Source of the DNA: Phalacrocorax carbo
Lineage: Eukaryota
Direction of reading: 5' to 3'
NCBI RefSeq assembly: GCF_963921805.1
Contig: NC_087541.1
Coordinates: forward strand, 672,482-697,839
Length of the DNA: 25,358 bases
The notes under the pieces were generated by a model that saw only the letters and a program-made list of their open reading frames with translations, searched no databases and was not told the origin of the DNA. Each line of letters begins with the position of its first letter. Positions within the stretch are counted from its first letter, which is position 1. Of this stretch, positions 751 to 25,358 are shown in pieces. The position numbers and the translations under genes are program-made.

Positions 751-1466
751 ACGCTGTGACAACCCCCCCCCCCACCCCGTAGGGAGCCGCCGCTGATTGG
801 AGGATCCGCGAAGGGGCGGAGACGGCGCGGGGGGGCGGGGCGAGGGGAGACCACGCCCCCCCGGCTCCGCCCCCGCCTGGCAATGGGGTGAAACCCGGCG
901 AAAATGGGGGCGGGGGGGGAGGGGAGGGGCGAGGGGGGGGCGAGGAGGAGGAGGAGGAGGAGGAGGAGGGGGGGAGGAGGAGGAGGAGGAGGGGGGGGAG
1001 GAAGAGAGGCCGCTCCCGAAGAATGGGGTGAAAAAGGGCAAAAAAAAGGGCTGAGCCCCAAAAGGGGGAAAAAAACTGGGAGAAACGGGGCGAAACGGGG
1101 CGGGATCGAGAGCGAGGAGGGGGAGGGGGGGGAGGAGGAGGAGGAGGAAGAGCAGGAGGAGGAAGAAGGAGAGGAAAAAGGCACAAAGCGGCTCGTAAAA
1201 AATGGGGTGGAAAAGGGCAAAATCAAGACTGAGCCCAAGACAGGGAAAAAACTGCTCAAAAATGGGGTGAAAAGGGGCAAAATCGAGAGCGAGGAGGAGG
1301 AGGAGGACGAGAACAAGGATGAAGATCAGGAGGAGGAAGGAGACACAAAGCGGCTCGTAAAAAATGGGGTGAAAAAAGGGCAAAATAAAGACTGAACCCA
1401 AGAAGGACAAAAAGCCGCTCAAAAATAGGGCGAAAAGGGGCAGAATCGAGAGCGAGGAGGAGGAGG

Positions 1467-2201
1467 ATGAAGAGGAGGATGAAGAGGAGGAGGATGAGAT
1501 CAGGAGAAGGGAGGAGGATGAAGATCAGGAGGAGGAAGGAGACACGAAGCCGCTCGCAAAAATTGGGGCGAAAACAGGCCAAAAAAAGGACTGAGCCTGA
1601 GAAAAGCTCTGTGAGAAACGGGGCGAAAAGGGGCAAAATCGAGAGCGAGGAGGAGGAGGAGGAAGAGGAGGAGGAAGAAGAGGAAGAAAGCACAAAGCGG
1701 CTCGTAGAAATTGGGGGAAAAAAGGGCAAAATAAAGACTGAGGCCAAGAAGGAGAAAAAGCCGCTGAAAAATGGGGCGAAAAGGGGCAAAATCGAGAGCG
1801 AGGAGGAGGAGGAGGAGGAGGATGAAGAGGAAGAAGAGGTGAAGGACCCGCCCCGGAAAAACGGGGTGAAAAAGGGCAAAAAGAGGAGCGAGAAGAACCG
1901 AGCTGTGAAAAACGGGGCGAAAAGGGTGAAATTGGAGAGGGAGAAGAAGAGGAAGAGGAGGAGGAGGAGGAGGAAGAGGAGGAAGAGGAGGAGGAGGAAG
2001 GCGACGAGCCGGCACCGGCAAAACGGGCTCAGAAAGGGCAGAAACGGGCCGAGGAGGAGGAGGAGGAGCGGGCAGGGAGGAAGGCCGAGGCCGAAGAGCG
2101 CCCGGGGGGCGGGGAAGAGGAAGAGGAGCCGGGACTCGTCCTCCTCCTCCTCCTCCTCCTCTTCCTCGCTGGAGGAGGAAGAGCGGCGCCCCCCCCGCAA
2201 G
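1467..2201 (+). CDS. HIRIP3: HIRIP3-like large internal exon (3' part): K/E/S-rich repeats [21 protein letters not shown]..., poly-Ser ...SRDSSSSSSSSSSSLEEEERRPPRK, donor AAG|GTAACC at 2202
   Basis: open frame ending at a strong donor; the Ser run followed by an acidic stretch, and the KNGV motif, resemble the HIRIP3 central region; upstream copies (about 900-1460) switch frame at A-homopolymers, so the true 5' boundary is unknown. Confidence 0.45.
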
Positions 2202-2209
2202 GTAACCAG

Positions 2210-4650
2210 TGCGCCCAGTGAGGGGGGGTTTGGGGGGCACTGGGGGCGTTTGGGGGGGTCTCAGGGGGGGTTCGGGGGGTCTGAGGGGGCGTTTGGGGCG
2301 TCTGGGGGGGGTGAGGTGGGGGTTTGGGGGGTCTGAGGGGGCGTTTGGGGGGTCTGAGGGGGGGTTTGGGGGTCTGAGGGGGCGTTCGGGGGGTCTGAGG
2401 GGGGGTTCGGGGGGTCTGAGGGGGGGTTCGGGGGTCTGAGGGGGGTTCGGGGGGTCTGAGGGGGGTTCGGGGGTCTGAGGGGGGTTCGGGGGGTCTGAGG
2501 GGGCGTTTGGGGGGTCTGAGGGGGGGTTCGGGGGTCTGAGGGGGGGTTCGGGGGGTCTGAGGGGGCGTTTGGGGGGTCTGAGGGGGGGTTCGGGGGTCTG
2601 AGGGGGGGTTCGGGGGGTCTGAGGGGGCGTTTGGGGGGTCTGAGGGGGGGTTCGGGGGGTCTGAGGGGGTGTTTGGGGGTCTGAGGGGGCGTTTGGGGGG
2701 TCTGAGGGGGGGTTCGGGGGGTCTGAGGGGGGGTTCGGGGGGTCTGAGGGGGGGTTCGGGGGTCTGAGGGGGGGTTTGGGGGTCTGAGGCGGGGTTCGGG
2801 GGGTCTGAGGGGGCGTTCGGGGGGTCTGAGGTGGGGTTCGGGGGTCTGAGGGGGGGTTTGGGGGGTCTGAGGCGGGGTTCGGGGGTCTGAGGGGGGGTTT
2901 GGGGGGTCTGAGGGGGCGTTCGGGGGGTCTGAGGGGGGGTTGGGGGGGTCTGAGGGGGCGTTTGGGGGGTCTGAGGGGGGGTTCGGGGGGTCTGAGGGGG
3001 GTTTGGGGGTCTGAGGGGGCGTTTGGGGGGTCTGAGGGGGGGTTCGGGGGGTCTGAGGGGGGGTTCGGGGGGTCTGAGGGGGCGTTTGGGGGTCTGAGGT
3101 GGGGTTCGGGGGGTCTGGGGGGGGTTCGGGGGTCTGAGGGGGGTTCGGGGGGTCTCAGGGGGCGTTTGGGGGGTCTGGGGGGGGTGAGGTGGGGTTCGGG
3201 GGGTCTGAGGGGGGATTCAGGGGGTCTGAGGGGGCGTTTGGGGCGTCTGAGGGGGGGTTCGGGGGGTCTGAGGGGGCGTTTGGGGGGTCTAAGGGGGGGT
3301 TCGGGGGTCTGAGGGGGGGTTCGGGGGGTCTGAGGGGGGGTTTGGGGGGTCTGAGGGGGGGTTCGGGGGGTCTGAGGGGGGGTTTGGGGGTCTGAGGGGG
3401 CGTTTGGGGGGTCTGAGGGGGGGTTCGGGGGGTCTGAGGGGGGGTTCGGGGGGTCTGAGGGGGCGTTTGGGGGGTCTGAGGTGGGGTTCGGGGGGTCTGG
3501 GGGGGGTTCGGGGTCTGAGGGGGGGTTCGGGGGGTCTCAGGGGGCGTTTGGGGGGTCTGGGGGGGGTGAGGTGGGGTTCGGGGGGTCTGAGGGGGGATTC
3601 ATGGGGTCTGAGGGGGCGTTTGGGGCGTCTGAGGGGGGGTTCGGGGGGTCTGAGGGGCGTTTGGGGGGTCTGAGGGGGGGTGAGGGGGGTCTGAGGGGGG
3701 GTTTGGGGGTCTGAGGGGGGGTTCGGGGGGTCTGAGGGGGGATTCAGGGGGTCTGAGGGGGCGTTTGGGGGGTCTGAGGGGGCGTTGGGGGTCTGAGGGG
3801 GGGTTCGGGGGGTCTGAGGGGGGGTTCGGGGGGTCTGAGGGGGCGTTTGGGGGGTCTGAGGCGGGGTTCGGGGGTCTGAGGGGGGGTTCGGGGGGTCTGA
3901 GGGGGCGTTTGGGGGGTCTGAGGTGGGGTTCGGGGGGTCTGGGGGGGGTTCGGGGGTCTGAGGGGGGGTTCGGGGGGGTCTCAGGGGGCGTTTGGGGGGT
4001 CTGGGGGGGGTGAGGTGGGTTCGGGGGGTCTGAGGGGGGATTCAGGGGGTCTGAGGGGGCGTTTGGGGGGTCTGAGGGGGGTTCGGGGGGTCTGAGGGGG
4101 CGTTTGGGGGGTCTGAGGGGGGTTCGGGGGGTCTGAGGGGGGGGTTCGGGGGTCTGAGGGGGGGTTTGGGGGGTCTGAGGGGGGGTTCGGGGGGTCTGAG
4201 GGGGTGTTTGGGGGGTCTAAGGGGGGGTTCGGGGGTCTGAGGGGGGGTTCGGGGGGTCTGAGGGGGGGTTCGGGGGGTCTGAGGGGGGTTGGGGGGGTCT
4301 GAGGGGGGGTTCGGGGGGTCTGAGGGGGGGTTGGGGGGGTCTGAGGGGGGGGTTTGGGGGGTCTGAGGGGGGGTTCGGGGGGTCTGAGGGGGCGTTTGGG
4401 GGGTCTGAGGGGGCGTTTGGGGGGTCTGAGGGGGGGGTTCGGGGGGTCTGAGGGGGGGTTTGGGGGTCTGAGGGGGGGTTCGGGGGGTCTGAGAGGGGGT
4501 TCGGGGGGTCTGAGGGGGGGTTCGGGGGGTCTGAGGGGGGGTTCGGGGGGTTTGAGGGGGCGTTTGGGGGCTCTGAGGGGGGGTTCAGGGGGTCTGACAG
4601 GGGGTTCGGGGGGTCTCAGGGGCGTTTGGGGGGTCTCGGGGGGGGGTTGG
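2210..4650. repeat. 20-21-bp G-rich minisatellite (GGGGGGTCTGAGGGGGCGTTT / ..GGGGTTC), about 120 copies, filling the HIRIP3 intron
   Basis: visible tandem periodicity; G-runs of 5 or more in every unit. Confidence 0.9.
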
Positions 4651-4849
4651 GAGCAATTTAGGGGATCGCTGGGTATTTAGGAGGGTCTTTAATCCTGGGG
4701 GGGGCTCAGAAGGTGAATTTGGGGGGGCGGGAGGGGACTCGGGGGGGCAGGGGGGGACTCGGGGGGGGGGCACTGGGGGGCTGGGGGGGTATCGCGGGGC
4801 GGGGCCCCGCGGGTGCAGCCTCCCACGCCCCCCCCCCGCCCCCCCGCAG

Positions 4850-5016
4850 GTGTCGGGGCGCGGCGGGGGGGGACCCCCCGGCCCTGCGGCGCCTCAAGGG
4901 GTACCTGCGGGCCTGTGGGGCGCGCCCCAACTACAAGAAGCTCCTGGGGGGCTGCCGCAGCCTGCGCGAGAGGGTCGGGGTGCTGCGGGGGGAGCTGCGG
5001 GCCCTCGGCCTCACCG
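4850..5016 (+). CDS. HIRIP3: HIRIP3 exon: (R)CRGAAGGDPPALRRLKGYLRACGARPNYKKLLGGCRSLRERVGVLRGELRALGLT(G), C-terminal conserved HIRIP3 domain
   Basis: strong acceptor (CCTCCCACGCCCCCCCCCGCCCCCCCGCAG ending at 4849); matches human RLKRYxRACGxxRNYKKLLGSCCSHKERLSILRAELEALGMKG; first of five tandem copies of the G|GTGCGG donor at 5017; phase with neighbouring exons is off by 1 nt. Confidence 0.7.
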
Positions 5017-5340
5017 GTGCGGGGCGGGGGGCTGCGGTGGGGGGCTGCGGGGGGAGCTGCGGGCCCTCGGCCTCACCGGTGCGGGGCGGGGGGCTGCGGT
5101 GGGGGGCGGGAGGGGGGGCTGCGGGGCCCTCGGCCTCACCGGTGCGGGGCGGGGGGCTGCGGTGGGGGGCGGGAGGGGGGGCTGCGGGGGGAGCTGCGGG
5201 CCCTCGGCCTCACCGGTGCGGGGCGGGGGGCTGCGGTGGGGGGCGGGAGGGGGGCTGCGGGGGGAGCTGCGGGCCCTCGGCCTCACCGGTGCGGGGCGGG
5301 GGCTGCGGTGGGGGGGCTACGGTGGGGTGGGAGGGGGCTG
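4988..5340. repeat. 62-74-bp tandem repeat of the HIRIP3 exon 3' end plus splice donor (GGAGCTGCGGGCCCTCGGCCTCACCG|GTGCGGGGCGGGGGGCTGCGGTGGGG), 5 copies; a degenerate sixth copy (donor GT mutated to AT) lies at about 5690-5750
   Basis: direct sequence comparison. Confidence 0.85.
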
Positions 5341-7260: not shown

Positions 7261-7445
7261 TTAATACTTGCGCTGGTGAAGAAAAAAACCGGGGGGTCTT
7301 TTTGGGGGGGGGGGGTCGTCTCCTTCCAGCTGGAAAAGGTCCCTCCCCGTCCGGAGAATCTGTTCTTCTAATTTTTTATGGCGTTTCATATCGGATAAAA
7401 CTTTATCGAGGCGCGCCTCCCGCTTCTGCCCGCGGCTGGGGGGGC
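7261..7445 (-). CDS. PAGR1: PAGR1 exon 3 (terminal): (G)[47 protein letters not shown]..[frame shift in C12 run]..LHQRKY stop
   Basis: acceptor CCTCCAG with phase matching exon 2; matches human [39 protein letters not shown]; the conserved C-terminal ...QRKY-stop is reached only in a frame shifted by one nt after the G12 run at +7306-7317; TAA is the complement of 7261-7263. Confidence 0.75.
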
Positions 7446-7554
7446 CTGGAGGGGGGGCACGGCGGGGTTGGAGGCGGCGCCGCCCAGGTTGGGGGTTTCC
7501 CGCCCAAAATGGGGGGGGGGGGTTGGGGAGGGGGTTTGGGGAGGGGGGCCTTAC

Positions 7555-7637
7555 CCGGGGCTCGGCGGCGGTCGATGAGGGAGCTCTTAGGGGCGACGGG
7601 CTCGTCGTCGAAGTCGAACTCGGTGGCGACGGGCGGC
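7555..7637 (-). CDS. PAGR1: PAGR1 exon 2: [28 protein letters not shown]
   Basis: acceptor CCTCCAG (complement of 7638-7644); donor G|GTAAGG (gt is the complement of 7554-7553); matches human [24 protein letters not shown]. Confidence 0.8.
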
Positions 7638-7805
7638 CTGGAGGGGGGAGAGGGGCCTTACCCGGGGGTCGGGGGCGGCGGGGGGCGGCGGGGGGCGGCG
7701 GGGGGCACCATCGGGAGGGGGGTCGCGAGGCGTGAGAGCTGCGGGGGGGGATTCTGGAAGTAAGGAAGCGCGAGGCGGGGAGTCGCGAGGTGGACGAGTC
7801 GTGGA

Positions 7806-9230
7806 GTGAGTGAACCGCCAGGGAGGTCGTCGAGCCGCGAGGGAAATGGCGACCTAAGCCGTGAGGTAAATCGCGAGGGAAATCGCGAGGGAAATCGCGA
7901 GGGAAATCGGGAGGGAAACGGCGAGGGAAATGGCGAGGGAAACGGCGAGGGAAATGGCGAGGGAAATCGGGAGGGAAACGGCGAGGGAAATCGGGAGGGA
8001 AACGGCGAGGGAAATGGCGAGGGAAATCGGGAGGGAAACGGCGAGGGAAACGGCGAGGGAAATGGCGACCTAAGCAGTGAGGTAAATCGCGAGCTAAGCC
8101 ATGAGATAAATCATGAGGTAAATCGCGAGCTAAGCCGTGAGGTAAATCGTGAGGCCGTGAGGTAAATTGTGAGGTAAATCATGAGGTAAATCGTGAGGCC
8201 GTGAGGTAAATTGTGAGGTAAATCATGAGGTAAATCGTGAGGCAAGTCGCGAGCTAAGCCGTGAGATAAATTGTGAAGTCAATCATGAGGTAAATCGCGA
8301 GCTAAGCCATGAGGTAAATTGTGAGGTAAATCGTGAGGTAAATTGTGAGGTAAATCATGAGGTAAATCGTGAGGCCGTGAGGTAAATTGTGAGGTAAATC
8401 ATGAGGTAAATCATGACGCAAGTCGCGAGCTAAGCCGTGAGATAAATTGTGAGGTCAATCATGAGGTAAATCGCGAGCTAAGCCGTGAGGTAAATCATGA
8501 GGTAAATCGCAACCTAAGCCATGAGGTAAATTGTGAGGTAAGCCGTGAGGTAAATTGTGAGGTACATCATGAGGTAAATCGTGAGGCCGTGAGGTAAATT
8601 GTGAGGTAAATCATGAGTTAAATCGTGAGGTAAATCGCGAGCTAAGCCGTGAGGTAAATTGTGAGGTAAATCGTGAGGTAAATCGCGAGCTAAGCCGTGA
8701 GGTAGACTGTGAGGTAAATCGTGAGTTAAATCGTGAGGTAAATCACGAGCTAAGCCGTGAGGTAAACTGTGAGGTAAATCGTGAGGTAAATCGCGACCTA
8801 AGCCATGAGGTAAACTGTGAGGTAAATCGTGAGGTAAATTGTGAGGTAAATCATGAGGTAAATCATGAGGCCGTGAGGTAAATCGTGAGGTAAATCGTGA
8901 GGTAAATCGTGAGGTAAATCGTGAGGTAAATCGTGAGGTAAAGCGTGAGGTAAAGCGTGAGGTAAAGCGTGAGCTAAGCCGTGAGATAAATTGTGAGGCA
9001 AATCATGAGGTAAATCGCAAGCTAAGCCGCGAGGTAAATTGTGAGGTACATCGCGAGCTAAGCTGTGAGGTAAATCGCGAGGTAAGCCGTGAGGTAAACT
9101 GTGAGGTAAGCCGTGAGATAAATTGTGAGATAAATCGTGAGCTAAGCCGTGAGCTAAGCCGTGAGGTAAATGGCGAGGTAAATGGCGACCTAAGCCGTGA
9201 GGTAAACAGCGAGGTAAAACGACAACATTT
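7806..9230. repeat. 12-bp minisatellite (CGAGGGAAATGG / GTGAGGTAAATC), about 118 copies, in PAGR1 intron 1; followed by an A-rich tract at 9235-9275
   Basis: visible periodicity; the unit is a multiple of 3, which explains the long REGNGEGN pseudo-ORF. Confidence 0.9.
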
Positions 9231-9308
9231 CCCCTAAAAAAAAAAACCACGCCAAAAAAAAAAAAAAAAAAAAAGGGTGGGTGGGATGTGGGGAATTTTT
9301 GTCTCTTA

Positions 9309-9669
9309 CTTCTCCTCCTCCTCCTCCTCGCTCTCGGGCTGCCCGGCCGAGCGCGGCTCCTCCTCGCTGTCGGGCTCCGGGGTGGGCGCGCGCCGGGGCA
9401 GCGGGACGTGCCGCAGCGGGAGGCTGCCCTGGTCGGCGATGAGCTCGTAGAGCCGCCGGATATCGGCGGGAGGGGGAAGCCATCCCTCGGGGGGTTCCCC
9501 TTCCTCCTCGCTCCAAGGAACCCCCCAGTCCTCCTCCTCTTCCTCGCCGAGGGGCGAGGGGGGCGGGCGGCGGGCGGCTCTCGCCGGCGCTGGCGGCCGG
9601 GGGGTCGGTGACGGCGAGGGAGCGGAGCCCCGACGTCACCTCCGACGCGTCCTCCGGCGGCGCCGTCAT
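9309..9669 (-). CDS. PAGR1: PAGR1 (PA1) exon 1: [22 protein letters not shown]...[78 protein letters not shown]
   Basis: reverse-strand translation matches human PAGR1 ([58 protein letters not shown]); ATG is the complement of 9667-9669; donor AAG|GTAAGA (gt is the complement of 9308-9307); an internal 1-nt frame inconsistency lies near 9540-9600. Confidence 0.78.
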
Positions 9670-9789
9670 GGCCGCCTGCGGGGGGCGGGCCGGTGTCACA
9701 CAGCGGCCCCCAGAAACGCCGGGATTCGCCCCAAAAAATGGGCATGGGGCTAAAGGTGATCCCGGTGTCGCCGTGGCCACCAAGGGGGG

Positions 9790-10880
9790 TCCTGAGGTGG
9801 TGCTGCCGCCCTCAAGGCCACCGTTTTAATGTCTAAGGTGGTCCTGGTGACCCCCTTGGCCACCAAATTGAGCCCCCCAGGGCCACCCTGGTGTCCCCAC
9901 GGCTACCAAATTCTCCCTGTAGCCACCAAATTGAGCCCTGAGGCAATCTGACCACCTACAATGGCCACTGTTTTAAGGTCTAAGGTGGTCCTGGTGACCC
10001 CGTGGCCACCTAATTCAGCTTTGAGGTGATCCTTGTGGCCACCAAATTGAGCCCAAGGCCACCCCGGTGTCCCCACGGCTACCAAATTCTCCCTGTGGCC
10101 ACCAAATTGAGCCCTGAGGCAATCTGGCCACCTACAATGGCCACCGTTTTAAGGTCTAAGGTGGTCCTGGTGACCCTGTGGCCGCCAAATTGAGCCCTCA
10201 GGTCACCAAATTCTCCCTGTGGCCACCAAATTGAGCCCTGAGGCGATCAGCCACCTACAATGGCCACCGTTTTAAGGTCTAAGTTAGTCTTGGTGACCCC
10301 GTGGCCACCAAATTCAGCCCTGAGGTGATCCTTGTGGCCACCAAATTGAGCCCTCAGGCCACCAAATTGAGCCCTGAGGTGAACCCGATGACCCCGTGGC
10401 CACCAAGGTGAGCACTGAGGTGGTCCTGCTGCCCTCAAGGCCACCGATTTAAGGTCTAAGGTGGTCCTGGTGTCCCCGTGGCCACCAAATTCAGCCCCGA
10501 GGCCACCAAATTGAAGCCTGAGGCGATCGGGCCACCTACAATGGCCACCGTTTTAAGGTCTAAGGTGGTCCTGGTGACCCCGTGGCCACCTAATTCAGCT
10601 TTGAGGTGATCCCTGTGGCCACCAAATTGAGCCCCGAGGTGGTCCTGGTGACCCCGTGGCCACCAAATCGAGCCCCAAGGCCACCCCAGTGTCCCCGTGG
10701 CCACCAAGGTGGGTCCTGAAGTGGTCCTGCCACCTCAAGGCCACCATTTAAAGGTCTAACGTGGTCCTGGTGTCCCCATGGCCACCAAATTGAGGCCTGA
10801 GGCCACCAAATTGTCCCTGTGGCCACCAAGTTGAGCCCTGAGGCGATCGGGCCACCTACAATGGCCGCCATTTTAACGCC
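9790..10880. repeat. complex higher-order satellite (about 270-bp units built from GGCCACCAAATTGAGCCCTGAGG and CTACAATGGCCACCGTTTTAAGGTCTAAGGTGGTCCTGGTGACC), about 4 copies
   Basis: repeated blocks visible at 9960, 10130, 10250, 10530 and 10850. Confidence 0.75.
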
Positions 10881-10899
10881 TGAGGTGATCCCGCCAGCC

Positions 10900-11360: not shown

Positions 11361-11629
11361 TCGGTGTGTAACCGTTAATTAAGATGGATATTTTTTGCTT
11401 TATTGCTCTGAAATCCAAGCGAATGGGCCCAAAATTAGGGTGGGGGGACGGTCGGGGGCCTCTCCTCGGTGGGCGCGGCCCTTAAAGAGGTAAAAGGCGT
11501 GGGTGGGGCCTGCCTTAAAGGGGACGTCCGTGCCCCAACCGTAATAAAAATGAATAATTCATAAGTAAAAGAAATCAAGTAGTGTCTAAATAAAGTAATT
11601 AATGAGCCCGGGTGGAAGAAAGCTCGGGA

Positions 11630-11870
11630 GGAGGTGGCCCCACCTTATCGCCGCTTTAAGAGATGGTGTTGCCTCTTTAGAGAACGGGTGGGCCCCACCT
11701 TATCGCCGCTTTAAGAGATGGTGTTGCCTCTTTAGAGAACGGGTGGGCCCCACCTTATCGCCGCTTTAAGAGATGGTGTTGCCTCTTTAGAGAACGGGTG
11801 GGCCCCACCTTATCGCCGCTTTAAGGTACGGCGCTGCCCCTTTAAGAGGAGGCGGGCCCGCCGTGTCGCC
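11630..11870. repeat. 57-bp x4 tandem repeat (GGGTGGGCCCCACCTTATCGCCGCTTTAAGAGATGGTGTTGCCTCTTTAGAGAAC) inside an AT-rich island
   Basis: four near-identical copies. Confidence 0.85.
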
Positions 11871-11879
11871 GCTTTAAGG

Positions 11880-13260: not shown

Positions 13261-13479
13261 GCCGCTTTGGGGTTAAAGCCCGGCTTTTTGGGTATCCCGG
13301 AGCCGCCCCTCCCCCCCCTCCCGGGAAGGAGGGATTCGGGGGGAGGTGGGGGCCCCCCCCCGGAGCTGGAGCCGCCCGGGGGGGGGGGGCGGACGAGGGG
13401 GGCTGGGCGACCCCCGCGGCCCGACGGAGCCGGAGCCGGAGCCGGTGAGGGGCGACCGGGGGCTTGGGGGGGGCCAGGG

Positions 13480-15500
13480 CCGGCGGCACTTGGGGGGCAG
13501 CGGCACTTGGGGGGCAGAGCCGGGGCCCTTGGGGCACTTGGGGCTCGGTAGGACTTGGGGGGCAGAGCCGGGGCCCTTGGGGCACTTGGGGCTCGGTAGG
13601 ACTTGGGGGGCAGAGCCGGGGCCCTTGGGGCACTTGGGGGTCGGTAGGACTTGGGGGGCAGAGCCGGGGTACTTGGGGCTCGGTAGGACTTGGGGGGCAG
13701 AGCCGGGGCCCTTGGGGCACTTGGGGCAGTTTAGGACTTGGGGGGCAGAGCCGGGGCCCTTGGGGCACTTGGGGCTCGGTAGGACTTGGGGGGCAGAGCC
13801 GGGGCCCTTGGGGCACTTGGGGCTCGGTAGGACTTGGGGGGCAGAGCCGGGGCCCTTGGGGCACTTGGGGGTCGGTAGGACTTGGGGGGCAGAGCCGGGG
13901 CCCTTGGGGCACTGGTGGGGCAGACTCTGGGTCTCTTGGGGGGCAACGCTTGGGTCACTTATGGGATCTGTGGGGCACTTGGGGGGGGACCCTGGGGCAA
14001 CTGTGGGGCAGAGCCTAGATCTTAAGTTCTCTTTAGCACTTGTGCTAAAGCACTTGGGGGGCAGCGCTTGGGTCTCTTGGGGGGCAGCGCTTGGGTCTCT
14101 TGTGGGATCTGTGGGGCAGAGCGTGGGGCACTTGGGGGGGCCCCATGGTCCCTTTTGGGAGAGAGCCTGAACCTTGGTCACTTGTGGGGCAGAGCCGGGG
14201 GCACTTGGGGGGCAGCAAGGCTTGTGGGGCAGAGCCTGGACCTTGAGTTCTCTTTAGCACTTGTGGGGCGGAGCGTGGGGCACTTGTGGGGCAGCGGGGC
14301 TTGGGGGGAGGGCCTGGACCCCAGGGACTCTTGTGGGGCAGCGCTTGGGTCGCTTGTGGATTCTGTGGGGCAGAATGTGGGTCACTTGGGGGGCAGAGCC
14401 TGAACCTCTGGAGCACTTGTGGGGCAGGGTGTGGGTCCCTTGGGGGCAGCGTGTGGGTCTCTTGTGGGGCAGTGCTTGGGTAGCTTGTGGGATCTGTGGG
14501 ACCGAGTGTGGGTCACTTGGGGGGCAGAGCCTGGGGCCCTGGGTCACATGTGGGGCAGGGTGTGGGTCACGTGTGGGGCAGGGCCTGTACCCTTGGGTCA
14601 GTTGTGGGGCAGGGCGTGGGTCACTTGGGGGGCAGAGCCTGTACCCCTGGGTCAGTTGTGGGGCAGGGCGTGGGTCACTTGGGGGGCAGAGCCTGTACCC
14701 CTGGGTCAGTTGTGGGGCAGGGCGTGGGTCACGTGTGGGGCAGAGCCTGAACCTTGTGTCACGTGTGGGGCAGGGCGTGGGTCACGTGTGGGGCAGGGCC
14801 TGAACCTTGGGTCACTTGTGGGGCAGGGTGTGGGTCACGTGTGGGATCTGTGGGGCTGAGTGTGGGTCACTTGGGGGGCAGAGCCTGGGGCCTTGGGTCA
14901 CTTGGGGGTCAGAGCCTGGTTCAGTTGTGGGGCAGGGTGTGGGTCACGTGTGGGGCAGAGCCTGTATCCCTGGGTCAGTTGTGGGGCAGAGCCTGCTTCA
15001 GTTGTGGGGCAGGGCCTGTATCCCTGGGTCACTTGGGGGGCAGAGCCTGCTTCAGTTGTGGGGCAGGGCCTGTATCCCTGGGTCACTTGGGGGGCAGAGC
15101 CTGCTTCAGTTGTGGGGCAGAGCCTGTATCCCTGGGTCACTTGGGGGGCAGAGCCTGGTTCAGTTGTGGGGCAGGGCGTGGGTCCCTTGTGGGGCAGAGC
15201 CCGAACCTTGGGTCACTTGGGGGGCAGGGCCTGGGTCACTTGGGGGGCAGAGCCTGCTTCAGTTGTGGGGCAGGGCATGGGTCACGTGTGGGGCAGAGCC
15301 CGAACCTTGGGTCACTTGGGGGGCAGGGCCTGGTTCAGTTGTGGGGCAGGGTGTGGGTCACGTGTGGGGCAGAGCCCGAACCTTGGGTCACTTGGGGGGC
15401 AGGGCCTGGTTCAGTTGTGGGGCAGGGCGTGGGTCACGTGTGGGGCAGAGCCCGAACCTTGGGTCACTTGGGGGGCAGGGCGTGGGTCACGTGTGGGGCA
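13480..15500. repeat. about 60-bp minisatellite family (CTTGGGGCACTTGGGGCTCGGTAGGACTTGGGGGGCAGAGCCGGGGCC, then GGGTCACGTGTGGGGCAGAGCCTGAACCTTGGGTCACTTGTGGGGCAGGGCGTG), about 30 copies
   Basis: visible periodicity. Confidence 0.85.
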
Positions 15501-15638
15501 GAGCCTGCACCCAAGCCACCCCCCCCGCCAGCAGCAGCACTCGGGTGACCCGTGGGGCCCCCCTGCGCCCCGTGGGGCAGCCCTGGCTGACGCGCGGCTC
15601 TGCCCCACGGCCGCTGTGGGGCGGGGGCAGGCGCCGCC

Positions 15639-15758
15639 ATGCCCTGGGGACGCCCGCGGGGCCCCCCCGGGGCCGGGCTCTTCCTGCAGGGGGACCCCGA
15701 GCGGCTCTTCGGGGACCTGCGCGAGATCGGCCACGGCAGCTTCGGCGCCGTCTACTTC
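15639..15758 (+). CDS. TAOK2: TAOK2 coding exon 1: start codon in gccgccATGc Kozak context, [40 protein letters not shown], kinase subdomain I (Gly loop)
   Basis: ATG at 15639; translation matches the TAO kinase N-terminus ([22 protein letters not shown] in human); phase-0 donor GTGAGT at 15759. Confidence 0.88.
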
Positions 15759-15764
15759 GTGAGT

Positions 15765-17290
15765 GCCCCACAAGTGCCCCCCCGCGCCCCACGGGTGCCC
15801 CCACGCACACCCCCGAGCCCCACAAGTGCCCCCACAAACACCCCGTGCCCCACGGGGGCCCCCCCGCGCCCCACAAGTGCCCACCACACACACCATGTGC
15901 CCCACAGAGGCCCACCCGTGCCCCACAAGTGCCCCCACAAACACCCCGTGCCCCACGGGGGCCCCCCCGCGCCCCACAAGTGCCCCCACACACACCCCCG
16001 GGTGCCCCCCTGCTCCCCACAAGTGCCCTCACAAACACCCGGTGCCCCCCTGCTCCCCACAAGTGCCCCCACAAACACCCCGTGCCCCACGGGGGCCCCC
16101 CCGCGCCCCACAAGTGCCCGCCACACACACCATGTGCCCCACGGGGGCCCACCCGTGCCCCACAAGTGCCCCCACACACACCCCCGGGTGCCCCCCTGCT
16201 CCCCACAAGTGCCCCCACACACACCCCCGTGCCCCCCGGATGCCCCCCTGCGCCCCACAAGTGCCCCACACACACACCCCGCGCCCCACGGGGGCCCCCC
16301 CCACGGCCCCCCCCATGCCCCCACACACACCCCGTGCCCCACGGGTGCCCCCCCGTGCCCCCACTCACACCCCCGCGCCCCACGGGTGCCCCCCACACAC
16401 ACCCCGCGCCCCACGGGTGCCCCCACATGGGTGCCTCATAGGTGCCCCCCTGCGCCCCATGAGTGCCCCTCCGCGCCCCATGAGTGTCCCCACACCCCCC
16501 TGAGCCCCACAAGTGCCCCCACAAACACCCCGTGCCCCATGGGGGCCCCCCCGCGCCCCACAAGTGCCCCCACACACACCCCCGGGTGCCCCCCTGCTCC
16601 CCACAAGTGCCCCCACAAACACCCGGTGCCCCCCTGCTCCCCACAAGTGCCCCCACAAACACCCCGTGCCCCACGGGGGCCCCCCCGCGCCCCACAAGTG
16701 CCCCCACACACACCCCCGGGTGCCCCCCTGCTCCCCACAAGTGCCCCCACAAACACCCGGTGCCCCCCTGCTCCCCACAAGTGCCCCCACAAACACCCCG
16801 TGCCCCCCGGATGCCCCCCTGCGCCCCACAAGTGCCCCCCACACACACCCCGCGCCCCACGGGGGCCCCCCCACGGCCCCCCCCATGCCCCCACACACAC
16901 TCCGTGCCCCACGGGTGCCCCCCCCCCACCCCCCACAAGTGCCCCCCCACACACCCCACACCTCACGGGTGCCCCTCCCGCGCCCCACGGGTGCCCCCCC
17001 GTGCCCCCACTCACACCCCCGCGCCCCACGGGTGCCCCCACACACCCCGCGTCCCACAAGTGCCCCCACATGGGTGCCTCATAGGTGCCCCCCCGCGCCC
17101 CATGAGTGCCCCACACCCCCCCACACACCCCCGTGTCCCACGGGTGCCCCCCCCACACACACCCCGTGCCCCACAGGTGCCCCCACACACACTCTGCGCC
17201 CCACGGGTGCCCTCAAACACACCCCCGTGCCCCACAAGTGCCCCCTACACACCCCCCGCGCCCCCCAAGTGCCCCCCGCGCCCCCCGTCT
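15765..17290. repeat. about 50-bp C-rich minisatellite (CCCCACAAGTGCCCCCACAAACACCCCGTGCCCCACGGGGGCCCCCCCGCG) filling TAOK2 intron 1
   Basis: visible periodicity. Confidence 0.85.
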
Positions 17291-17310: not shown

Positions 17311-17382
17311 GCGCGGGACAGGCGGACGAGCGAGGTGGTGGCCATCAAGAAGATGTGCTACGGCGGGAAGCAGTCCAATGAG
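17311..17382 (+). CDS. TAOK2: TAOK2 exon 2: ARDRRTSEVVAIKKMCYGGKQSNE (VAIK catalytic lysine)
   Basis: polypyrimidine tract plus CAG acceptor ending at 17310; GTGGGA donor at 17383; in phase with exon 1; matches ARDVRNSEVVAIKKMSYSGKQSNE. Confidence 0.9.
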
Positions 17383-17935: not shown

Positions 17936-18037
17936 AAGTGGCAGGACATCGTGAAGGAGGTGCAGCTGCTGCAGCGCCTGCGTCACCCCAACACCATCGA
18001 GTTCAAGGGCTGTTACCTGCGCGGCCACACGGCCTGG
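17936..18037 (+). CDS. TAOK2: TAOK2 exon 3: [34 protein letters not shown]
   Basis: acceptor CACAG ending at 17935; donor GTGAGC at 18038; phase 0; LRHPNTI and GCYLR..HTAW match TAOK2. Confidence 0.9.
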
Positions 18038-18850: not shown

Positions 18851-18896
18851 CTGGTCATGGAGTATTGCCTGGGCTCGGCCTCCGACCTGCTGGAGG
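18851..18896 (+). CDS. TAOK2: TAOK2 exon 4: LVMEYCLGSASDLLE plus 1 nt of a split codon
   Basis: acceptor AAG ending at 18850; donor G|GTGAGT at 18897; identical to human LVMEYCLGSASDLLE. Confidence 0.9.
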
Positions 18897-19006
18897 GTGA
18901 GTGGCGGCGCCGTGGGGCGGCAGCGCCGTGGGGCGGCGGCGCCGTGGGGCGGTGCCGTGGGGCGCCCCACGGCTGCCCCTGCCCCACGCCGCTCCTGCCC
19001 CCCAAG

Positions 19007-19103
19007 CGCACAAGAAGCCGCTGCAGGAGGGGGAGATCGCGGCCATCACGCACGGGGCGCTGCGGGGCCTGGCCTACCTGCACGGCCACGACGTCATCCA
19101 CAG
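19007..19103 (+). CDS. TAOK2: TAOK2 exon 5: (A)[31 protein letters not shown](R), catalytic-loop HR
   Basis: acceptor CCAAG ending at 19006 completes the split Ala codon; donor AG|GTGTGT at 19104; phase consistent with exons 4 and 6. Confidence 0.88.
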
Positions 19104-19109
19104 GTGTGT

Positions 19110-21010
19110 GACCCACGGCGCGACCCACGGCTGCCCCGCGGCGCGGCCCGGGGCTCGCTCTGCCCCATGGTGCGACTCACGGCATGACCCACGGCGCGGC
19201 CCGGGGCTCGCGCTGTCCCTCCTCTGCCCCACGGCGCGGCCCGGGGCTCGCGCTGTCCCTCCTCTGCCCCACAGTGTGACCCACGGCGCGGCCCGGGGCT
19301 CGCGCTGTCCCTCCTCTGCCCCACGGTGTGACCCACGGCGCGGCCCGGGGCTCGCGCTGTCCCTCCTCTGCCCCACGGTGTGACCCACGGCGCGGCCCGG
19401 GGCTCGCGCTGTCCCTCCTCTGCCCCACGGTGTGACCCACGGCGCGGCCCGGGGCTCGCGCTGTCCCTCCTCTGCCCCACGGTGTGACCCACGGCGCGGC
19501 CCGGGGCTCGCGCTGTCCCTCCTCTGCCCCACGGCGCGGCCCGGGGCTCGCGCTGTCCCTCCTCTGCCCCACGGCTGCCCCACGTCGTGACCCACAGCAC
19601 GGCCCAGGGCTTGCTCTGCGCCACAGCGCGACCCACAGCTGCCCCACAGCACAGCCCAGGGCTTGCACTGTCCCTCCTCTGCCCCACGGCGCGACCCCCG
19701 GCTGCCCCACAGCACAGCCCAAGGCTTGCACTGTCCCTCCTCTGCCCCACGGCACAACCCGGGGCTCGCTCTGCCCCATGGCTGCCCCATGGCGCGACCC
19801 ACGGCCGCCCCGTGGCGCAGCCCGGGGCTCACACTGTCCTTCCTCTGCCCCACGGCTGCCCCATGGCGTGACCTGGGGCTCGCGCTGTCCCTTCTCTGCC
19901 CCACGGCGTGACCCACAGCGCAGCCCGGGGCTCGCTTTGCCCCACGGCACGACCCACGGCGCAGCCTGGGGCTCACACCGTGATTCTGACCCACGGCTGC
20001 CCCACGGCGTGACCCACAGCTTGCGCTGTCCTTTCTCTGCCTCGCGCCTGCCCCACAGCACAACCCACGGCTGCCCCACAGCGCGACCCAGGGCTCACAC
20101 TGTCCCTCTTCTGCCCCATGGCTGCCCCACGGCACACCCTGGGCCTCGTGCTGTCCCTTCTGTGCCCCACGGCTGCCCCATAGCGTGCCCCGGCCTCTGC
20201 CCGCCCCACATCTGCCCCACATTCGCCTGTCCCTCCGCGTGTGTGTTCCCGGCGCCCCACGGATCCCCTCCCCCACCCCACTGATCCCCCTTTCTCTGCC
20301 CCACCGGCCCCTCCCCCGCCCCACTGATCCCCCTCCCCCACCCCACCGGCCCCTCCCCCCACTGGCCCCCCTTTTCCCACCCCCTCCCCTTGACCCCTCT
20401 GCTGCTGCTCCCCTCCCCCACCCTGTTGACCCCTCCCCCGATTCCTCCCCTCCCCCACTGACCCCCCTTCCCCCACTGACCCCTCCCCCACCCCGACCCC
20501 TCCCCCACTGACCCCTTCCCCCCACCGACCCCTCCCCGACCCCTCCCCCACTGACCCCCCTTCCCCCCACCAACCCCTCCCCCACCCCCGACCCCTCCCC
20601 TCCCCCACTGACCCACCTACCCCACCGACCCCTCCCCCACCCTGTTGACCCCTCCCCCGACTCCTCCCCTCCCCCACTGACCCCCTTCCCCCACCGACCC
20701 CACCCCGACCCCTCCCCCATTGACCCCCTTTTCCCCCCCCACCCTTCCCTCCCTCCTCCCCTGCCCCACCCCTCCCCCACCCCGCTGCCCCTCCCCTTTT
20801 TTCCCCGCCCCCTCCCCCCACCGGCCCCTCCCCCACCACTGACCCCTCCCCCACCCACCCCCCCCCCGCCCCATTGACCTCCCTTTTCCTCCCCCCACCC
20901 CCCCTTCCCCACCCTTTCCCCCCGGCCCCCCCACCCTTTCCCCCCGGCCCCTCCCCCACCCCCGCCCCTCCCCCACCCCGCCCCTCCCCCCGCCCCTCCC
21001 CCCGCCCCTC
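19110..21010. repeat. TAOK2 intron 5: about 60-bp repeat (TGACCCACGGCGCGGCCCGGGGCTCGCGCTGTCCCTCCTCTGCCCCACGGTG, about 14 copies, 19110-20200), then a C-rich CCCCTCCCCCACC array (20200-21010)
   Basis: visible periodicity. Confidence 0.8.
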
Positions 21011-21026: not shown

Positions 21027-21140
21027 GGACGTCAAAGCCGGCAACATCCTGCTGACGGCGCCGGGCGAGGTGAAACTGGGCGATTTCGGGTCGGCCTCCG
21101 TCGTGGCGCCGGCCAATTCCTTCGTGGGGACGCCCTATTG
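21027..21140 (+). CDS. TAOK2: TAOK2 exon 6: (R)[37 protein letters not shown](W), catalytic loop, DFG, activation segment
   Basis: acceptor TTTAG ending at 21026; donor TG|GTGAGG at 21141; RDVKAGN and KLGDFG are TAOK2-type (TAOK1/3 have DIKAGN and KLADFG). Confidence 0.9.
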
Positions 21141-21202
21141 GTGAGGGAGGCGCCCCTCCCCCTTCCCCTCCGCCCCCACACTTGTGGGGCTCAGCCCCAT
21201 AG

Positions 21203-21515
<313 letters not shown>

Positions 21516-21524
21516 GTGCGCAGA

Positions 21525-23340
21525 GACCCCCCCCCCCAAATCCCCCCCGCCCCCCCACCCCGCCCCCCAACCCCCCGCCCCCCCCCCGCGCCCCCAAACC
21601 CCCCCCCCGCCCCCCAAAACCTCCCCAAACCCGCCCCCTGGGGCCCCAAACTGCCTCAGAATGGCCCCAAAACCCCCCCCAAACCACCCTCCAGACCCCC
21701 AAACCCCCCCCCCAAACCCCCCCCGCGCCCCCCCAAACCCCCCCGGGCCCCCCAAACCCCCCCGGCCCCCCCCAAACCCCCCCCGCGCCCCCAAAACCTC
21801 CCGAACCCACCCTCGAATGCCCCAAACTGCCTCCGAATGGCACCAAACTGCCTCAAAATCCCTCCCCAAAACCCCCCCAGACCCCCCCCAAATCGCACCC
21901 TGAAACCCCCCCGGCCCCCCCAAACCTCCCTGAGCCCCCCCCCAGCCCCCCCCGGCCCCCCCAAACCTCCCCAAAACCCCCCCCCAGAATCCCCCAAACT
22001 CCCTCAAAATTCCCCCAAAGTCCCTCCCAACCCCTCCCCCACCCCCCAGACCCCTCCCCCACCCCACAGGCCCCTCCAGACCCCTCCCCACCCCCCAGAC
22101 CCCTCCCCCACCCCACAGGCCCCTCCCAGACCCCTCCCCCACCCCCCAGACCCCTCCCCACCCCCCAAACCTCTCCCAGACCCCTCCCCCACTCCCCAGA
22201 CCCCTCCCCCACCCCCCAAACCCCTCCCGGACCCCGCCCCCACCCCCCGGCTGCCCCTCTCAGACCCCTCCCCCACCTCCCAGACCCCTCCCCCACCCCC
22301 CAAACCTCTCCCGGACCCCTCCCCCACCCCCCGGGCCCCTCCCGGACCCCTCCCCCACCCCCAGACCCCTCCCGGACCCCTCCCCCACCCCCCAAACCCC
22401 TCCCAGACCCCTCCCCCACCCCCCGGCCGCCCCTCTCAGACCCCTCCCCCACCTCCCAGACCCCTCCCCCACCCCCCAAACCCCTCCCGGGCCCCTCCCC
22501 CACCCCCCAGACCCCTCCCCCACCCCCCGGGCCCCTCCCCCACCCCCCAGACCCCTCCCGGACCCCTCCCCCACCCCCGAAACCCCTCCCGGACCCCTCC
22601 CCCACCCCCAGACCCCTCCCAGACCCCTCCCCCACCCCCAGACCCCTCCCCCACCCCCCAGACCCCTCCCCCACCCCCAGACCCCTCCCGGACCCCTCCC
22701 CCACCCCCAGACCCCTCCCAGACCCCTCCCCAGACCCCTCCCGGACCCCTCCCCCGCCCCCCAGACCCCTCCCCCACCCCCCAGACCCCTCCCGGACCCC
22801 TCCCCCACCCCCCAGACCCCTCCCGGACCCCTCCCCCACCCCCCAGACCCCCTCCCCCACCCCCCAGACCCCTCCCGGACCCCTCCCCCACCCCCCGGGC
22901 CCCTCCCCCACCCCCCAGACCCCTCCCCCAGACCCCTCCCAGACCCCTCCCCCACCCCCCAGACCCCTCCCCCACCCCCCAGACCCCTCCCGGACCCCTC
23001 CCCCACCCCCCGGGCCCCTCCCCCAGACCCCTCCCCCACCCCCCAAACCCCTCCCGGACCCCTCCCCCACCCCCCGGGCCCCTCCCCCACCTCCCAGACC
23101 CCTCCCCCAGACCCCTCCCAGACCCCTCCCCCACCCCACAGGCCCCTCCCAGACCCCTCCCCCACCCCCCAGACCCCTCCCCCACCCCCCGGGCCCCTCC
23201 CCCACCTCCCAGACCCCTCCCCCAGACCCCTCCCAGACCCCTCCCCCACCCCACAGGCCCCTCCCAGACCCCTCCCCCACCCCCCAGACCCCTCCCCCAC
23301 CCCCCGGGCCCCTCCCCCACCCCCCGGCCGCCCCTCCCCC
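21525..23340. repeat. C-rich 20-33-bp minisatellite (CCCCTCCCCCACCCCCCAGACCCCTCCCGGAC), about 70 copies, filling TAOK2 intron 8
   Basis: visible periodicity. Confidence 0.85.
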
Positions 23341-23345
23341 CGCAG

Positions 23346-23427
23346 GTCGGAGCTCTTCCGCCAGTTCGTGGCCTCCTGCCTGCAGAAGCCGCCCCCCCAG
23401 CGCCCCCCCTCCCGCCTCCTCCTGCAG
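23346..23427 (+). CDS. TAOK2: TAOK2 exon 9: (W)SELFRQFVASCLQKPPPQRPPSRLLLQ
   Basis: acceptor CCGCAG ending at 23345; donor CAG|GTAACG at 23428; matches [27 protein letters not shown]. Confidence 0.88.
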
Positions 23428-23526: not shown

Positions 23527-23706
23527 CACCCCTTCCTGCTCCGCCCGCGCCCCCCCGGCGTCGTCGCCCGCCTCCTGCGCCGCGCCCGCGCCGCCGCCCC
23601 TCCCCCACGCCGCCGCGGGCTGGGGGGGCTGCTCCGCGGGCCCGATCCTGGCGGCGGCGACGATGACGACGACGACGAGGAGGATGATGACGACGACGAG
23701 GAGGAG
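23527..23706 (+). CDS. TAOK2: TAOK2 exon 10: HPFLLRPRPPGVVARLLRRARAAAPPPRRRGLGGLLRGPDPGGGDDDDDDEEDDDDDEEE (post-kinase segment plus acidic tract)
   Basis: acceptor CCACAG ending at 23526; donor GAG|GTGACG at 23707; aligns positionally with [21 protein letters not shown]...EAPEEEEE, but the central part is strongly diverged. Confidence 0.7.
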
Positions 23707-23759: not shown

Positions 23760-24610
23760 CCGTGGGGCGGCTCCCAGGGGTCTCGGGGGTGTCCCTGGGG
23801 GTCCCTGTCACCTCCCTGGGGGTCCCTGGGGGTCCCTGTCCCCTCCTGGGGGTCCCTGGGGGTCCCTGTCACCTCCCTGGGGGTCCCTGGGGGTCCCTGG
23901 GGGTCCCTGTCCCCTCCCTGGGGGTCCCTGGGGGTCCCTGTCCCCTCCCGGGGGGTCCCTGGGGTCCCTGTCACCTCCCTGGGGGTCCCTGGGGGTCCCT
24001 GTCCCCTCCCTGGGGGGTCCCTGGGGGTCCCTGTCACCTCTCTGGGGGTCCCTGGGGGTCCCTGTCCCCTCCCACGGGGTCCCTGGGGGTCCCTGTCACC
24101 TCCCTGGGGGTCCCTGGGGGTCCCTGGGGGTCCCTGTCCCCTCCCTGGGGGGTCCCTGGGGGTCCCTGTCCCCTCCCTGGGGGTCCCTGGGGGTCCCTGT
24201 CACCTCCCGGGGGGTCCCTGGGGGTCCCTGTCACCTCCCTGGGGGTCCCTGGGGGTCCCTGGGGGTCCCTGTCCCCTCCCTGGGGGGTCCCTGGGGGTCC
24301 CTGTCCCCTCCCGGGGGGTCCCTGGGGGTCCCTGTCCCCTCCCACGGGGTCCCTGGGGGTCCCTGTCCCCTCCCTGGGGGGTCCCTGGGGGTCCCTGGGG
24401 GTCCCTGTCCCCTCCCTGGGGGGTCCCTGGGGGTCCCTGGGGGTCCCTGTCCCCTCCCTGGGGGGTCCCTGGGGGTCCCTGGGGGTCCCTGTCCCCTCCC
24501 TGGGGGTCCCTGTCCCCTCCCTGGGGGTCCCTGGGGGTCCCTGTCACCTCCCGGGGGGTCCCTGGGGGTCCCTGTCCCCTCCCTGGGGGGTCCCTGGGGG
24601 TCCCTGTCAC
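23760..24610. repeat. about 30-bp G-rich repeat (GGGGGTCCCTGGGGGTCCCTGTCCCCTCCCTG), about 28 copies, in TAOK2 intron 10
   Basis: visible periodicity. Confidence 0.85.
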
Positions 24611-24679
24611 CCCCTGGAGCTCTGGGGGATCCCCGTGTCCCCCCCCGTGACCCCCCTGACCCCCCCCCCCCACTGGCAG

Positions 24680-24871
24680 GAGGCGGAGCCGTCGGGCAGC
24701 ACCGAGCGCAGCCATTGGCCGCCCAGCGCGTCCGTCAGCGCCTCCAGCAGCGGCACCAGCCTGGGCGACGCCTCCGAGGAGGAGGAGGAGGGGCGGGGGG
24801 AGGGGGAGGAAGGCCCCGAGACCCCCCCGCTGCAGGACGGGGAGACCCTGGGCGCCCCCCACGGCCCCGAC
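24680..24871 (+). CDS. TAOK2: TAOK2 exon 11: EAEPSGSTERSHWPPSASVSASSSGTSLGDASEEEEEGRGEGEEGPETPPLQDGETLGAPHGPD (Ser-rich/acidic linker)
   Basis: acceptor GGCAG ending at 24679; donor GAC|GTGAGC at 24872; aligns with human AEPYMHRAG..SMSISASSQSSSVNSLADASDNEEEE..EGPEAREM. Confidence 0.8.
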
Positions 24872-25290: not shown

Positions 25291-25358
25291 GTGGGAGGGG
25301 CTTCGGAGGGTGTGGCTGGGTGGGAGGGGCTTGCGTGGGTGTGGTCGGGGAGCCACGC

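Follow-up and report, generated by a model that had tools for sequence, protein, structure and literature searches.

The window of 25,358 nucleotides (nt) from Phalacrocorax carbo contig NC_087541.1 contains the 5' part of a gene for a TAO-type protein kinase, with PAGR1 and a second neighbouring gene upstream of it. The tenth exon of the kinase gene, which follows the kinase domain, no longer encodes the complete post-kinase motif of the TAO kinases, and this exon is the subject of the present analysis. The exon model, built from tblastn matches and splice sites, comprises 11 visible exons that encode the N-terminal 397 residues of a TAO kinase; the spliced model is free of stop codons and has AG/GT at every boundary (Table 1). 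The GC content at third codon positions (GC3) of the model is 0.94. The Pfam Pkinase domain matches residues 27-277 (E = 1e-61), and the closest solved structure is the TAO2 kinase domain (1U5Q, 1U5R, and 2GCD; E = 1e-157), the alignment to which reaches residue 296, within exon 10. All columns invariant among 30 TAO kinases are retained, including K53 of VAIK, HRD, DFG, S177, and APE, and the kinase domain is approximately 82-83% identical to that of mammal, lizard, and fish TAOK2. The lengths of exons 2-9 are identical in the loci of the window, gull (Larus), pigeon (Caloenas), honeyguide (Indicator), and parrot (Pezoporus). From these sequence features, the protein is probably still an active kinase. 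Taken together, the gene has the kinase domain, exon structure, and 16p11.2-block synteny of a TAO kinase of the STE20 group and lacks the second half of the post-kinase motif. No coiled-coil exon was found within the window, which extends only 487 nt past exon 11 to its end at 25358; the donor site of exon 11 suggests that the gene may continue beyond it.

Table 1. Coordinates of the kinase gene exons, the parts of exon 10, and the neighbouring features (positions in the window unless another locus is named)
Feature	Position	Strand	Description
Exon 1	15639..15758	+	ATG to GT donor; tblastn/splice model; blastn matches to gull and pigeon exon 1
Exon 2	17311..17382	+	72 nt
Exon 3	17936..18037	+	102 nt
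Exon 4	18851..18896	+	46 nt
Exon 5	19007..19103	+	97 nt; 3' end is HR of the HRD catalytic loop
Exon 6	21027..21140	+	114 nt; carries the DFG motif and activation-loop serine
Exon 7	21241..21332	+	92 nt
Exon 8	21422..21515	+	94 nt
Exon 9	23346..23427	+	82 nt; Pfam Pkinase match stops here, at residue 277
Exon 10	23527..23706	+	180 nt; frame 1, phase 0; AG before, GT after
Exon 10, codons 1-24	23527..23598	+	HPFLLRPRPPGVVARLLRRARAAA; retained N-terminal half of the post-kinase helix
Exon 10, codons 25-44	23599..23658	+	PPPRRRGLGGLLRGPDPGGG; replaced C-terminal half of the motif
Exon 10, codons 45-60	23659..23706	+	aspartate/glutamate (D/E) tract; 16 residues vs 4-5 in canonical TAOK2
Exon 11	24680..24871	+	Ser-rich and acidic region; derived form common to window and pigeon; GTGAGC donor at 3' end
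Exon 11 counterparts	pigeon locus sequence 18856-18934; gull 11591-11878; cuckoo about 3064-3293		
PAGR1	7264..9635	-	three coding blocks; head-to-head with the kinase gene
E/K-rich gene beyond PAGR1	about 900-5100	+	coding-like repeats of 153-199 nt at 1132-1984
48/54-nt minisatellite	13505..15507	.	upstream of exon 1; same position in gull and pigeon

Exon 10 had been proposed in the initial annotation to be the homologue of the TAO post-kinase exon, and this identification is supported because the exon has the same phase and position, its 5' half is alignable, TAO2 is the best structural match, and the gene lies in a PAGR1/HIRIP3 neighbourhood. The exon translates as HPFLLRPRPPGVVARLLRRARAAAPPPRRRGLGGLLRGPDPGGG followed by 16 D/E residues, DDDDDDEEDDDDDEEE, in agreement with the original reading. 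Its boundaries and length are also preserved as had been stated, with AG/GT sites and with the phase and position seen in five other bird loci, in which the exon measures 162-183 nt. The description of the motif as regulatory is an assumption of the initial annotation. The further claim that the motif has been replaced applies only to its C-terminal half. Codons 1-24 remain alignable, showing 61% nt identity to the cuckoo (Cuculus) exon and 11-15 of 24 residues identical to other birds, and this half includes L289 and R292, which are invariant and nearly invariant, respectively, among the 30 TAO kinases. In contrast, codons 25-44 are only 28% identical to the cuckoo exon at the nt level, which is approximately the expectation from base composition (0.27 in the corresponding gull comparison). 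The acidic tract, which had been described as preserved, is indeed present but has been expanded. It contains a 24-nt duplication and a (GAY/GAR)n repeat, and grew through duplication. Weak CGCCCG / CCGCCGCCCGCG repeats are found at 23542-23599, just 5' of the replaced part.

A run of seven cytosines (C7) is present at 23550-23556, as originally pointed out, and low-complexity GC repeats occur within the exon; such regions are described as hard to sequence in two earlier papers (PMC4539667 and PMC9516821). A homopolymer frameshift or a collapsed GC-rich repeat could in principle mask a canonical exon. However, the other two frames of exon 10 encode unrelated Pro/Ala/Arg-rich strings, so that the motif appears in no frame. 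The frame is anchored by homology on either side of C7, where RPRPPGVV..LL.R aligns with the canonical sequence and the reading continues in frame to the D/E tract and a recognisable exon 11; a frameshift is therefore not the explanation. Moreover, codons 25-44 have no residual nt similarity to the canonical exon, which a one-base error cannot yield, and comparable degradation is seen in independent assemblies and in an mRNA contig of other birds. A sequencing or assembly artefact is thus extremely improbable.

Structure prediction draws the same boundary within the exon. The AlphaFold2 model of the window protein shows a confident kinase core followed by a helix at residues 285-296 (VVARLLRRARAA), for which the predicted local distance difference test score (pLDDT) falls from 95 to 75, and the chain is disordered with pLDDT below 50 after residue 300. 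Canonical TAOK2 is modelled with a single helix at 289-318, with declining confidence (pLDDT 90, 67, and 47). The retained half shows the hydrophobic pattern V-V..L-L and the conserved Arg, after which come three prolines, an Arg/Gly/Pro stretch, and the acidic tract. The models thus indicate that the proximal half of the post-kinase helix is kept and the distal half is lost. By analogy with the TAO2 crystal structure, the proximal half presumably packs on the kinase domain.

The post-kinase motif, initially described as near-invariant from fish to human, is conserved even more widely: among 120 homologues, it is kept from cnidarians, nematodes, rotifers, and insects to vertebrates. The comparison with TAOK2 of other birds, which had been recommended, divides them into two sets. 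Larus, Calidris (ruff), Apteryx (kiwi), and Cuculus carry the canonical motif together with coiled-coil exons; with GC3 as high as 0.85-0.93, these birds still have the motif, the coiled-coil exons, and an exon 11 of canonical form. The motif is degraded, differently in each lineage, in Caloenas (VLLDLIGRAQAAARALDQLHLRPMRKLLLPE), Indicator (VLLELLQRTKEALRGLGQLQRRRPQELQLQQ), Pezoporus, estrildid finches, and other passerine-like transcripts. In the pigeon, honeyguide, parrot, and finch (Lonchura) loci, no coiled-coil exons were detectable, and CDIPT follows approximately 1-4 kb downstream. The RefSeq TAO2 models of Caloenas, Indicator, Pezoporus, and Lonchura comprise 317-457 residues, compared to 1238 residues for the cuckoo model. 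Since four other bird orders are also without the motif at the same type of locus, its absence from the window is a secondary, derived loss that does not argue against ancestry. In addition, a 1399-nt Logan contig carries an uninterrupted open reading frame (ORF) of 378 codons and so demonstrates that the finch-like short form exists as spliced mRNA in which its exon 10 is retained. The bird comparisons are subject to the quality of the gene models, some of which are incomplete or chimeric: one segment occurs twice in the Calidris model, the ruff scaffold consists of 38% N and gives no neighbour information, and the chicken model ends before exon 10, which limits its comparison to the kinase domain. 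Exon 9 of the cuckoo was placed by hand in the gene model, and the finch was left out of the exon-model comparison.

The changes in exon 10 are strongly directional. Over its first 44 codons, 46 A/T-to-G/C differences against 2 in the reverse direction were counted from gull to window, and 36 against 4 from cuckoo to window. The GC content over these 132 nt is 0.87 in the window, compared to 0.63 in the cuckoo, and the entire gull exon 10 has 0.57. At the protein level, replacement by Ala, Arg, Gly, and Pro was borne out: G+A+R+P (GARP) accounts for 0.73 of the first 44 residues versus 0.21 in the gull, while F+Y+M+I+N+K (FYMINK) accounts for 0.02 versus 0.27. For the kinase domain, the corresponding fractions are 0.305 versus 0.245 for GARP and 0.21 versus 0.26 for FYMINK. 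A GARP fraction of 0.73 is more than expected by chance, being reached by 3.4% of in-frame 44-residue windows translated from the introns of this gene, for which the mean is 0.59. Given this base composition, a 60-codon open frame would arise by chance with a probability of 61%. Since the composition lies at or beyond that of the intron translations and the ORF is expected by chance, nothing indicates selection on residue identity in the replaced part. Within the first 335 residues of TAOK2 from mammal, lizard, and gull, the 15-residue window richest in FYMINK falls at about residues 303-320 (8-9 of 15, versus a mean of 3.9), so that a fixation bias toward G/C would affect this stretch more than any other.

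The strength of constraint was examined with the ratio of nonsynonymous to synonymous substitution rates (dN/dS), a check that had been suggested for this exon. For codons 1-24, rough values of 0.59, 0.66, and 1.04 were obtained against gull, pigeon, and honeyguide, respectively, whereas the value for the kinase exons was 0.19 in the comparisons with gull and with cuckoo and 0.30-0.37 in those with the divergent birds. Constraint on exon 10 is relaxed relative to the kinase exons. The initial annotation had offered GC-biased substitution in a functional gene and relaxed constraint as two alternatives; the data support both, and the two are not mutually exclusive.

Could the replacement have been adaptive, in that the Arg-rich, proline-broken segment and the longer acidic tract gained a new role, for example in directing localisation, in forming a new docking surface, or in relieving autoinhibition? 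The GARP fraction above the intron mean, the dN/dS of up to 1.04 against the honeyguide, and the continued constraint on the kinase core would be compatible with such a gain. However, the composition is as expected from the local base composition and slippage of GC-rich repeats, the sequence differs in each bird lineage without any convergent new motif, and dN/dS does not exceed 1 beyond the noise of 24 codons. Adaptive replacement is accordingly very improbable. Only slightly less so is the idea that the gene is heading for loss through the ohnolog attrition of dot chromosomes, or that exon 10 is unused and its sequence unconstrained. The random-level identity of the distal half, the chance expectation of its ORF, and the loss of the coiled-coil part in other birds are in line with this idea, but each of the 11 exons is open and has canonical splice sites, the kinase exons evolve under the low dN/dS given above, codons 1-24 keep the helix pattern, exon 11 is highly similar to that of the pigeon, and the passerine mRNA contig contains the homologous exon. 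The hallmarks of a pseudogene are thus absent: no disruption is found in the 11 exons, and only exon 10 approaches neutrality.

The neighbouring genes place the kinase gene in a recognisable block. PAGR1 was identified by a database search, in which all 120 matches listed carry PF15364, whereas Pfam searches with the raw PAGR1 ORFs gave no match. Among the matches listed, the PAGR1 of the window is closest to those of penguin (89%), stork (86%), and albatross (83%). PAGR1 is also head-to-head with a TAO2 gene in Caloenas nicobarica and Cuculus canorus. The E/K-rich gene beyond PAGR1 is probably HIRIP3, although Pfam searches with its peptides gave no match; its C-terminal peptide LRRLKGYLRACGARPNYKKLLGGC (4872-5018) is conserved beside PAGR1 in ostrich (72%) and cuckoo (84%). 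In the ostrich (Struthio camelus, CM081617.1), a Sushi/CUB gene similar to SEZ6L2 occupies the 5' side of PAGR1 in place of TAOK2, and no TAOK2 exon was found within 10 kb; the block is arranged differently in this palaeognath. The chromosome record that carries the pigeon ortholog is 775 kb long, and the record with the cuckoo ortholog is 1.06 Mb long.

Repeats occupy much of the remaining sequence. The GC content across the window is mostly 0.70-0.81, and 63 Tandem Repeats Finder rows with a score of at least 200 cover most of its introns. Minisatellites with units of 10-300 nt and up to approximately 117 copies, at 2219-4651, 7860-9218, 9857-10891, 13505-15507, 15810-17276, 19228-19935, 22022-23325, and 23777-24617, occupy most introns and spacers. 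Lengths of the same intron vary up to approximately 20-fold between bird species. The PAGR1 intron at 7860-9218 is filled by about 115 copies of a 12-nt repeat, CGTGAGGTAAAT, which drops the local GC content to 0.44-0.47 and forms the sole AT-richer patch in the window. The 48/54-nt array upstream of exon 1 was located at 13353-15515 in the window, 873-3440 in the gull locus sequence, and 8992-9922 in the pigeon locus sequence, suggesting that it persisted, or was renewed, across bird orders. The short introns 4, 6, and 7 (18897-19006, 21141-21240, and 21333-21421) contain palindromic CCxTGGGGC...GCCCCAxGG motifs that are common to five bird orders, with counterparts in gull, pigeon, honeyguide, and parrot, although these introns are otherwise poorly conserved. 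In Cuculus canorus, exons 8 and 9 are fused without intron 8 (4504-4689 of the locus sequence), while intron 8 of the window measures 1830 nt.

There remains the question of whether the gene is the TAOK2 ortholog or a copy of it. One TAOK2 locus with lineage-specific erosion is very probable, and a separate paralog is unlikely by comparison. In the cuckoo (CM030674.1), the PAGR1-adjacent gene encodes the kinase of 1238 residues, has exons 10 and 11 in canonical form, and includes coiled-coil exons; the HIRIP3-like gene lies beyond PAGR1 in the window, as in ostrich and cuckoo; and the window aligns with the gull across the upstream minisatellite and the introns. According to the competing explanation, the gene would be a bird-specific partial duplicate consisting of the kinase and a short tail, or a chimera with the canonical gene, and the canonical TAOK2 would lie elsewhere in a poorly assembled region. 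In its favour, two deletions (21 nt and 9 nt) and about 10 substitutions in exon 11 are common to window and pigeon, which are 92% identical over 79 nt of this exon, whereas exon 11 of gull, ruff, and cuckoo is canonical and has none of these changes. The 5' part of the window is gull-like and its exon 11 pigeon-like. This pattern also conflicts with the gull-like introns and fourfold degenerate sites of the window, and with any accepted neoavian tree. Furthermore, a neighbour-joining (NJ) tree of kinase domains groups the window with all divergent bird genes at 99% bootstrap, and the arrangement of a truncated gene with CDIPT behind it was seen repeatedly, in pigeon, honeyguide, parrot, and finch, each time without detectable coiled-coil exons.

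Other observations are difficult to reconcile with a duplicate. In the cuckoo, a canonical, full-length gene occupies the corresponding position beside PAGR1, and the two forms occur together in none of about 11 bird species sampled. Of the kinase-domain sites, just two are in a derived state in every divergent lineage, and nearly all shared changes are A/T-to-G/C, as parallel bias predicts, several of them being present also in the cuckoo. Synonymous distances, though saturated, are star-like and do not place the gull deeper. The NJ clade, exon 11, and the truncation common to several birds had at first favoured a model with an ancient paralog, which was downgraded in view of the canonical full-length cuckoo gene at the same position. 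A mosaic test of A-like and B-like kinase sites along the gene gave no clear conversion tracts. Parsimony polarisation of the kinase-exon changes, based on bird sequences only, was confounded by parallel GC gain and was not used.

Collectively, it is likely that the window carries the bird TAOK2 ortholog, whose post-kinase exon has been eroded by GC-biased fixation and repeat slippage acting on a weakly constrained segment. The gene sits in a region of extreme GC content filled with minisatellites, such as occurs on avian dot or micro-chromosomes, and its kinase core is held by purifying selection. Exon 10 would have been eroded by fixation biased from A/T to G/C, whether through GC-biased gene conversion or through a bias of equivalent effect, and short GC-rich repeats would have added to the erosion by slippage. 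The effect would be strongest where the canonical protein most needs AT-rich codons, that is, in the stretch rich in K, I, N, Y, M, and F, on which constraint appears weak in this lineage. The protein would consequently have lost whatever the distal helix mediates, such as docking of a partner or of the tail.

Several points weigh against this explanation or loosen it. The cuckoo ortholog retains the motif at GC3 0.93; GC pressure alone is therefore insufficient, and a lineage-specific drop in constraint is also needed. The ORF of exon 10 is, given its expectation by chance, not evidence of coding constraint. The dS values are near saturation (fourfold-site identity 0.55-0.71), which makes dN/dS rough and dS only a qualitative clock. 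The role of biased gene conversion as the driver is suggested by the substitution pattern, and the inclusion of exon 10 in the mRNA by its splice sites and the passerine transcript. Finally, a simple history with a single locus does not account for the likeness of exon 11 to that of the pigeon; the form common to the two birds may go back to an old state with two copies and a chimeric gene.

The ortholog with an eroded exon could be part of a wider process. It is conceivable, albeit doubtful, that the non-catalytic part of TAOK2 has been taken apart repeatedly in neognath birds, which would have lost the distal helix and the coiled-coil tail together while keeping a constrained and expressed kinase core. 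The window would then represent an intermediate stage, in which the helix is lost and exon 11 is still spliced onward. If so, the distal helix would work only together with the tail, and birds would offer a natural series of 'kinase-only' TAOK2 variants. In other birds, loss of the distal helix does accompany loss of the coiled-coil tail. For TAO kinases in general, the case hints that the proximal helix half is needed by the kinase fold and that the distal half is dispensable once another constraint, perhaps the coiled-coil tail or a docking partner, has been relaxed. More broadly, GC-biased fixation on bird micro-chromosomes would be able to erase a segment conserved since early animals without destroying the gene, beginning with the parts that depend on AT-rich codons. 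The findings also carry a warning for annotation in that bird genes called TAO2 encode very different products.

Compared to vertebrate TAOK2, the gene in the window shares the Ser-rich and acidic region after the kinase domain and the 16p11.2-block neighbours PAGR1 and the HIRIP3-like gene, with CDIPT as a further neighbour in other birds; it differs in the absence of the distal helix half, the expanded acidic tract, the shortened exon 11, and the GC3 of 0.94. Region 314-451 of TAO2 is reported in a review to dock MKK3 (PMC7589832), and the stretch lost in the window abuts this region. The short bird models named TAO2 or TAO2-like (Caloenas XP_065511397.1, Taeniopygia XP_072792518.1, Lonchura XP_077645694.1, Pezoporus, and Indicator) have the same exon structure as the window and a degraded post-kinase exon that keeps a V-(V/L)..LL.R start, and Caloenas also shares the PAGR1 neighbour and the derived exon 11. 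However, the kinase domain of the window is less diverged than those of the short models (83% versus 69-77% identity to lizard), the distal half of its exon 10 is more fully replaced than in Caloenas or Indicator, and its exon 11 has a good donor, while the short models are without detectable coiled-coil exons before the nearby CDIPT. Among the canonical bird genes (Cuculus canorus CM030674.1, Larus michahellis XP_074428002.1, Calidris pugnax, and Apteryx rowi), the cuckoo shares the PAGR1 locus, and the gull shares the minisatellite, alignable introns, and the lengths of exons 2-9; unlike the window, these genes have the full motif, a canonical exon 11, and the coiled-coil exons.

The closest parallels are the GC-rich, hard-to-sequence bird genes, for which GARP enrichment, FYMINK loss, and accelerated protein evolution have been described (Huttener et al. 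2021, PMC8449477), and the dot chromosomes, which show ohnolog attrition, intron repeat expansion, and 'sequence stuttering' (Hron et al. 2026, PMC12954441). The window resembles these 'hidden' avian genes in its extreme GC3, its gain of GARP and loss of FYMINK, a faster protein change than in non-avian orthologs, and minisatellite-filled introns and spacers, as well as in belonging to the human chromosome 16 cluster in which ALDOA is also found. TAOK2, PAGR1, HIRIP3, and CDIPT are not mentioned in the text of these two papers or in the supplements examined, and literature text searches found no paper mentioning avian TAOK2. The phenomenon is thus already known in kind, and TAOK2 is a new, well-resolved case rather than a new kind of feature. 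Unlike the cases described in those papers, the effect is pinned here to one motif that is otherwise conserved across Metazoa.

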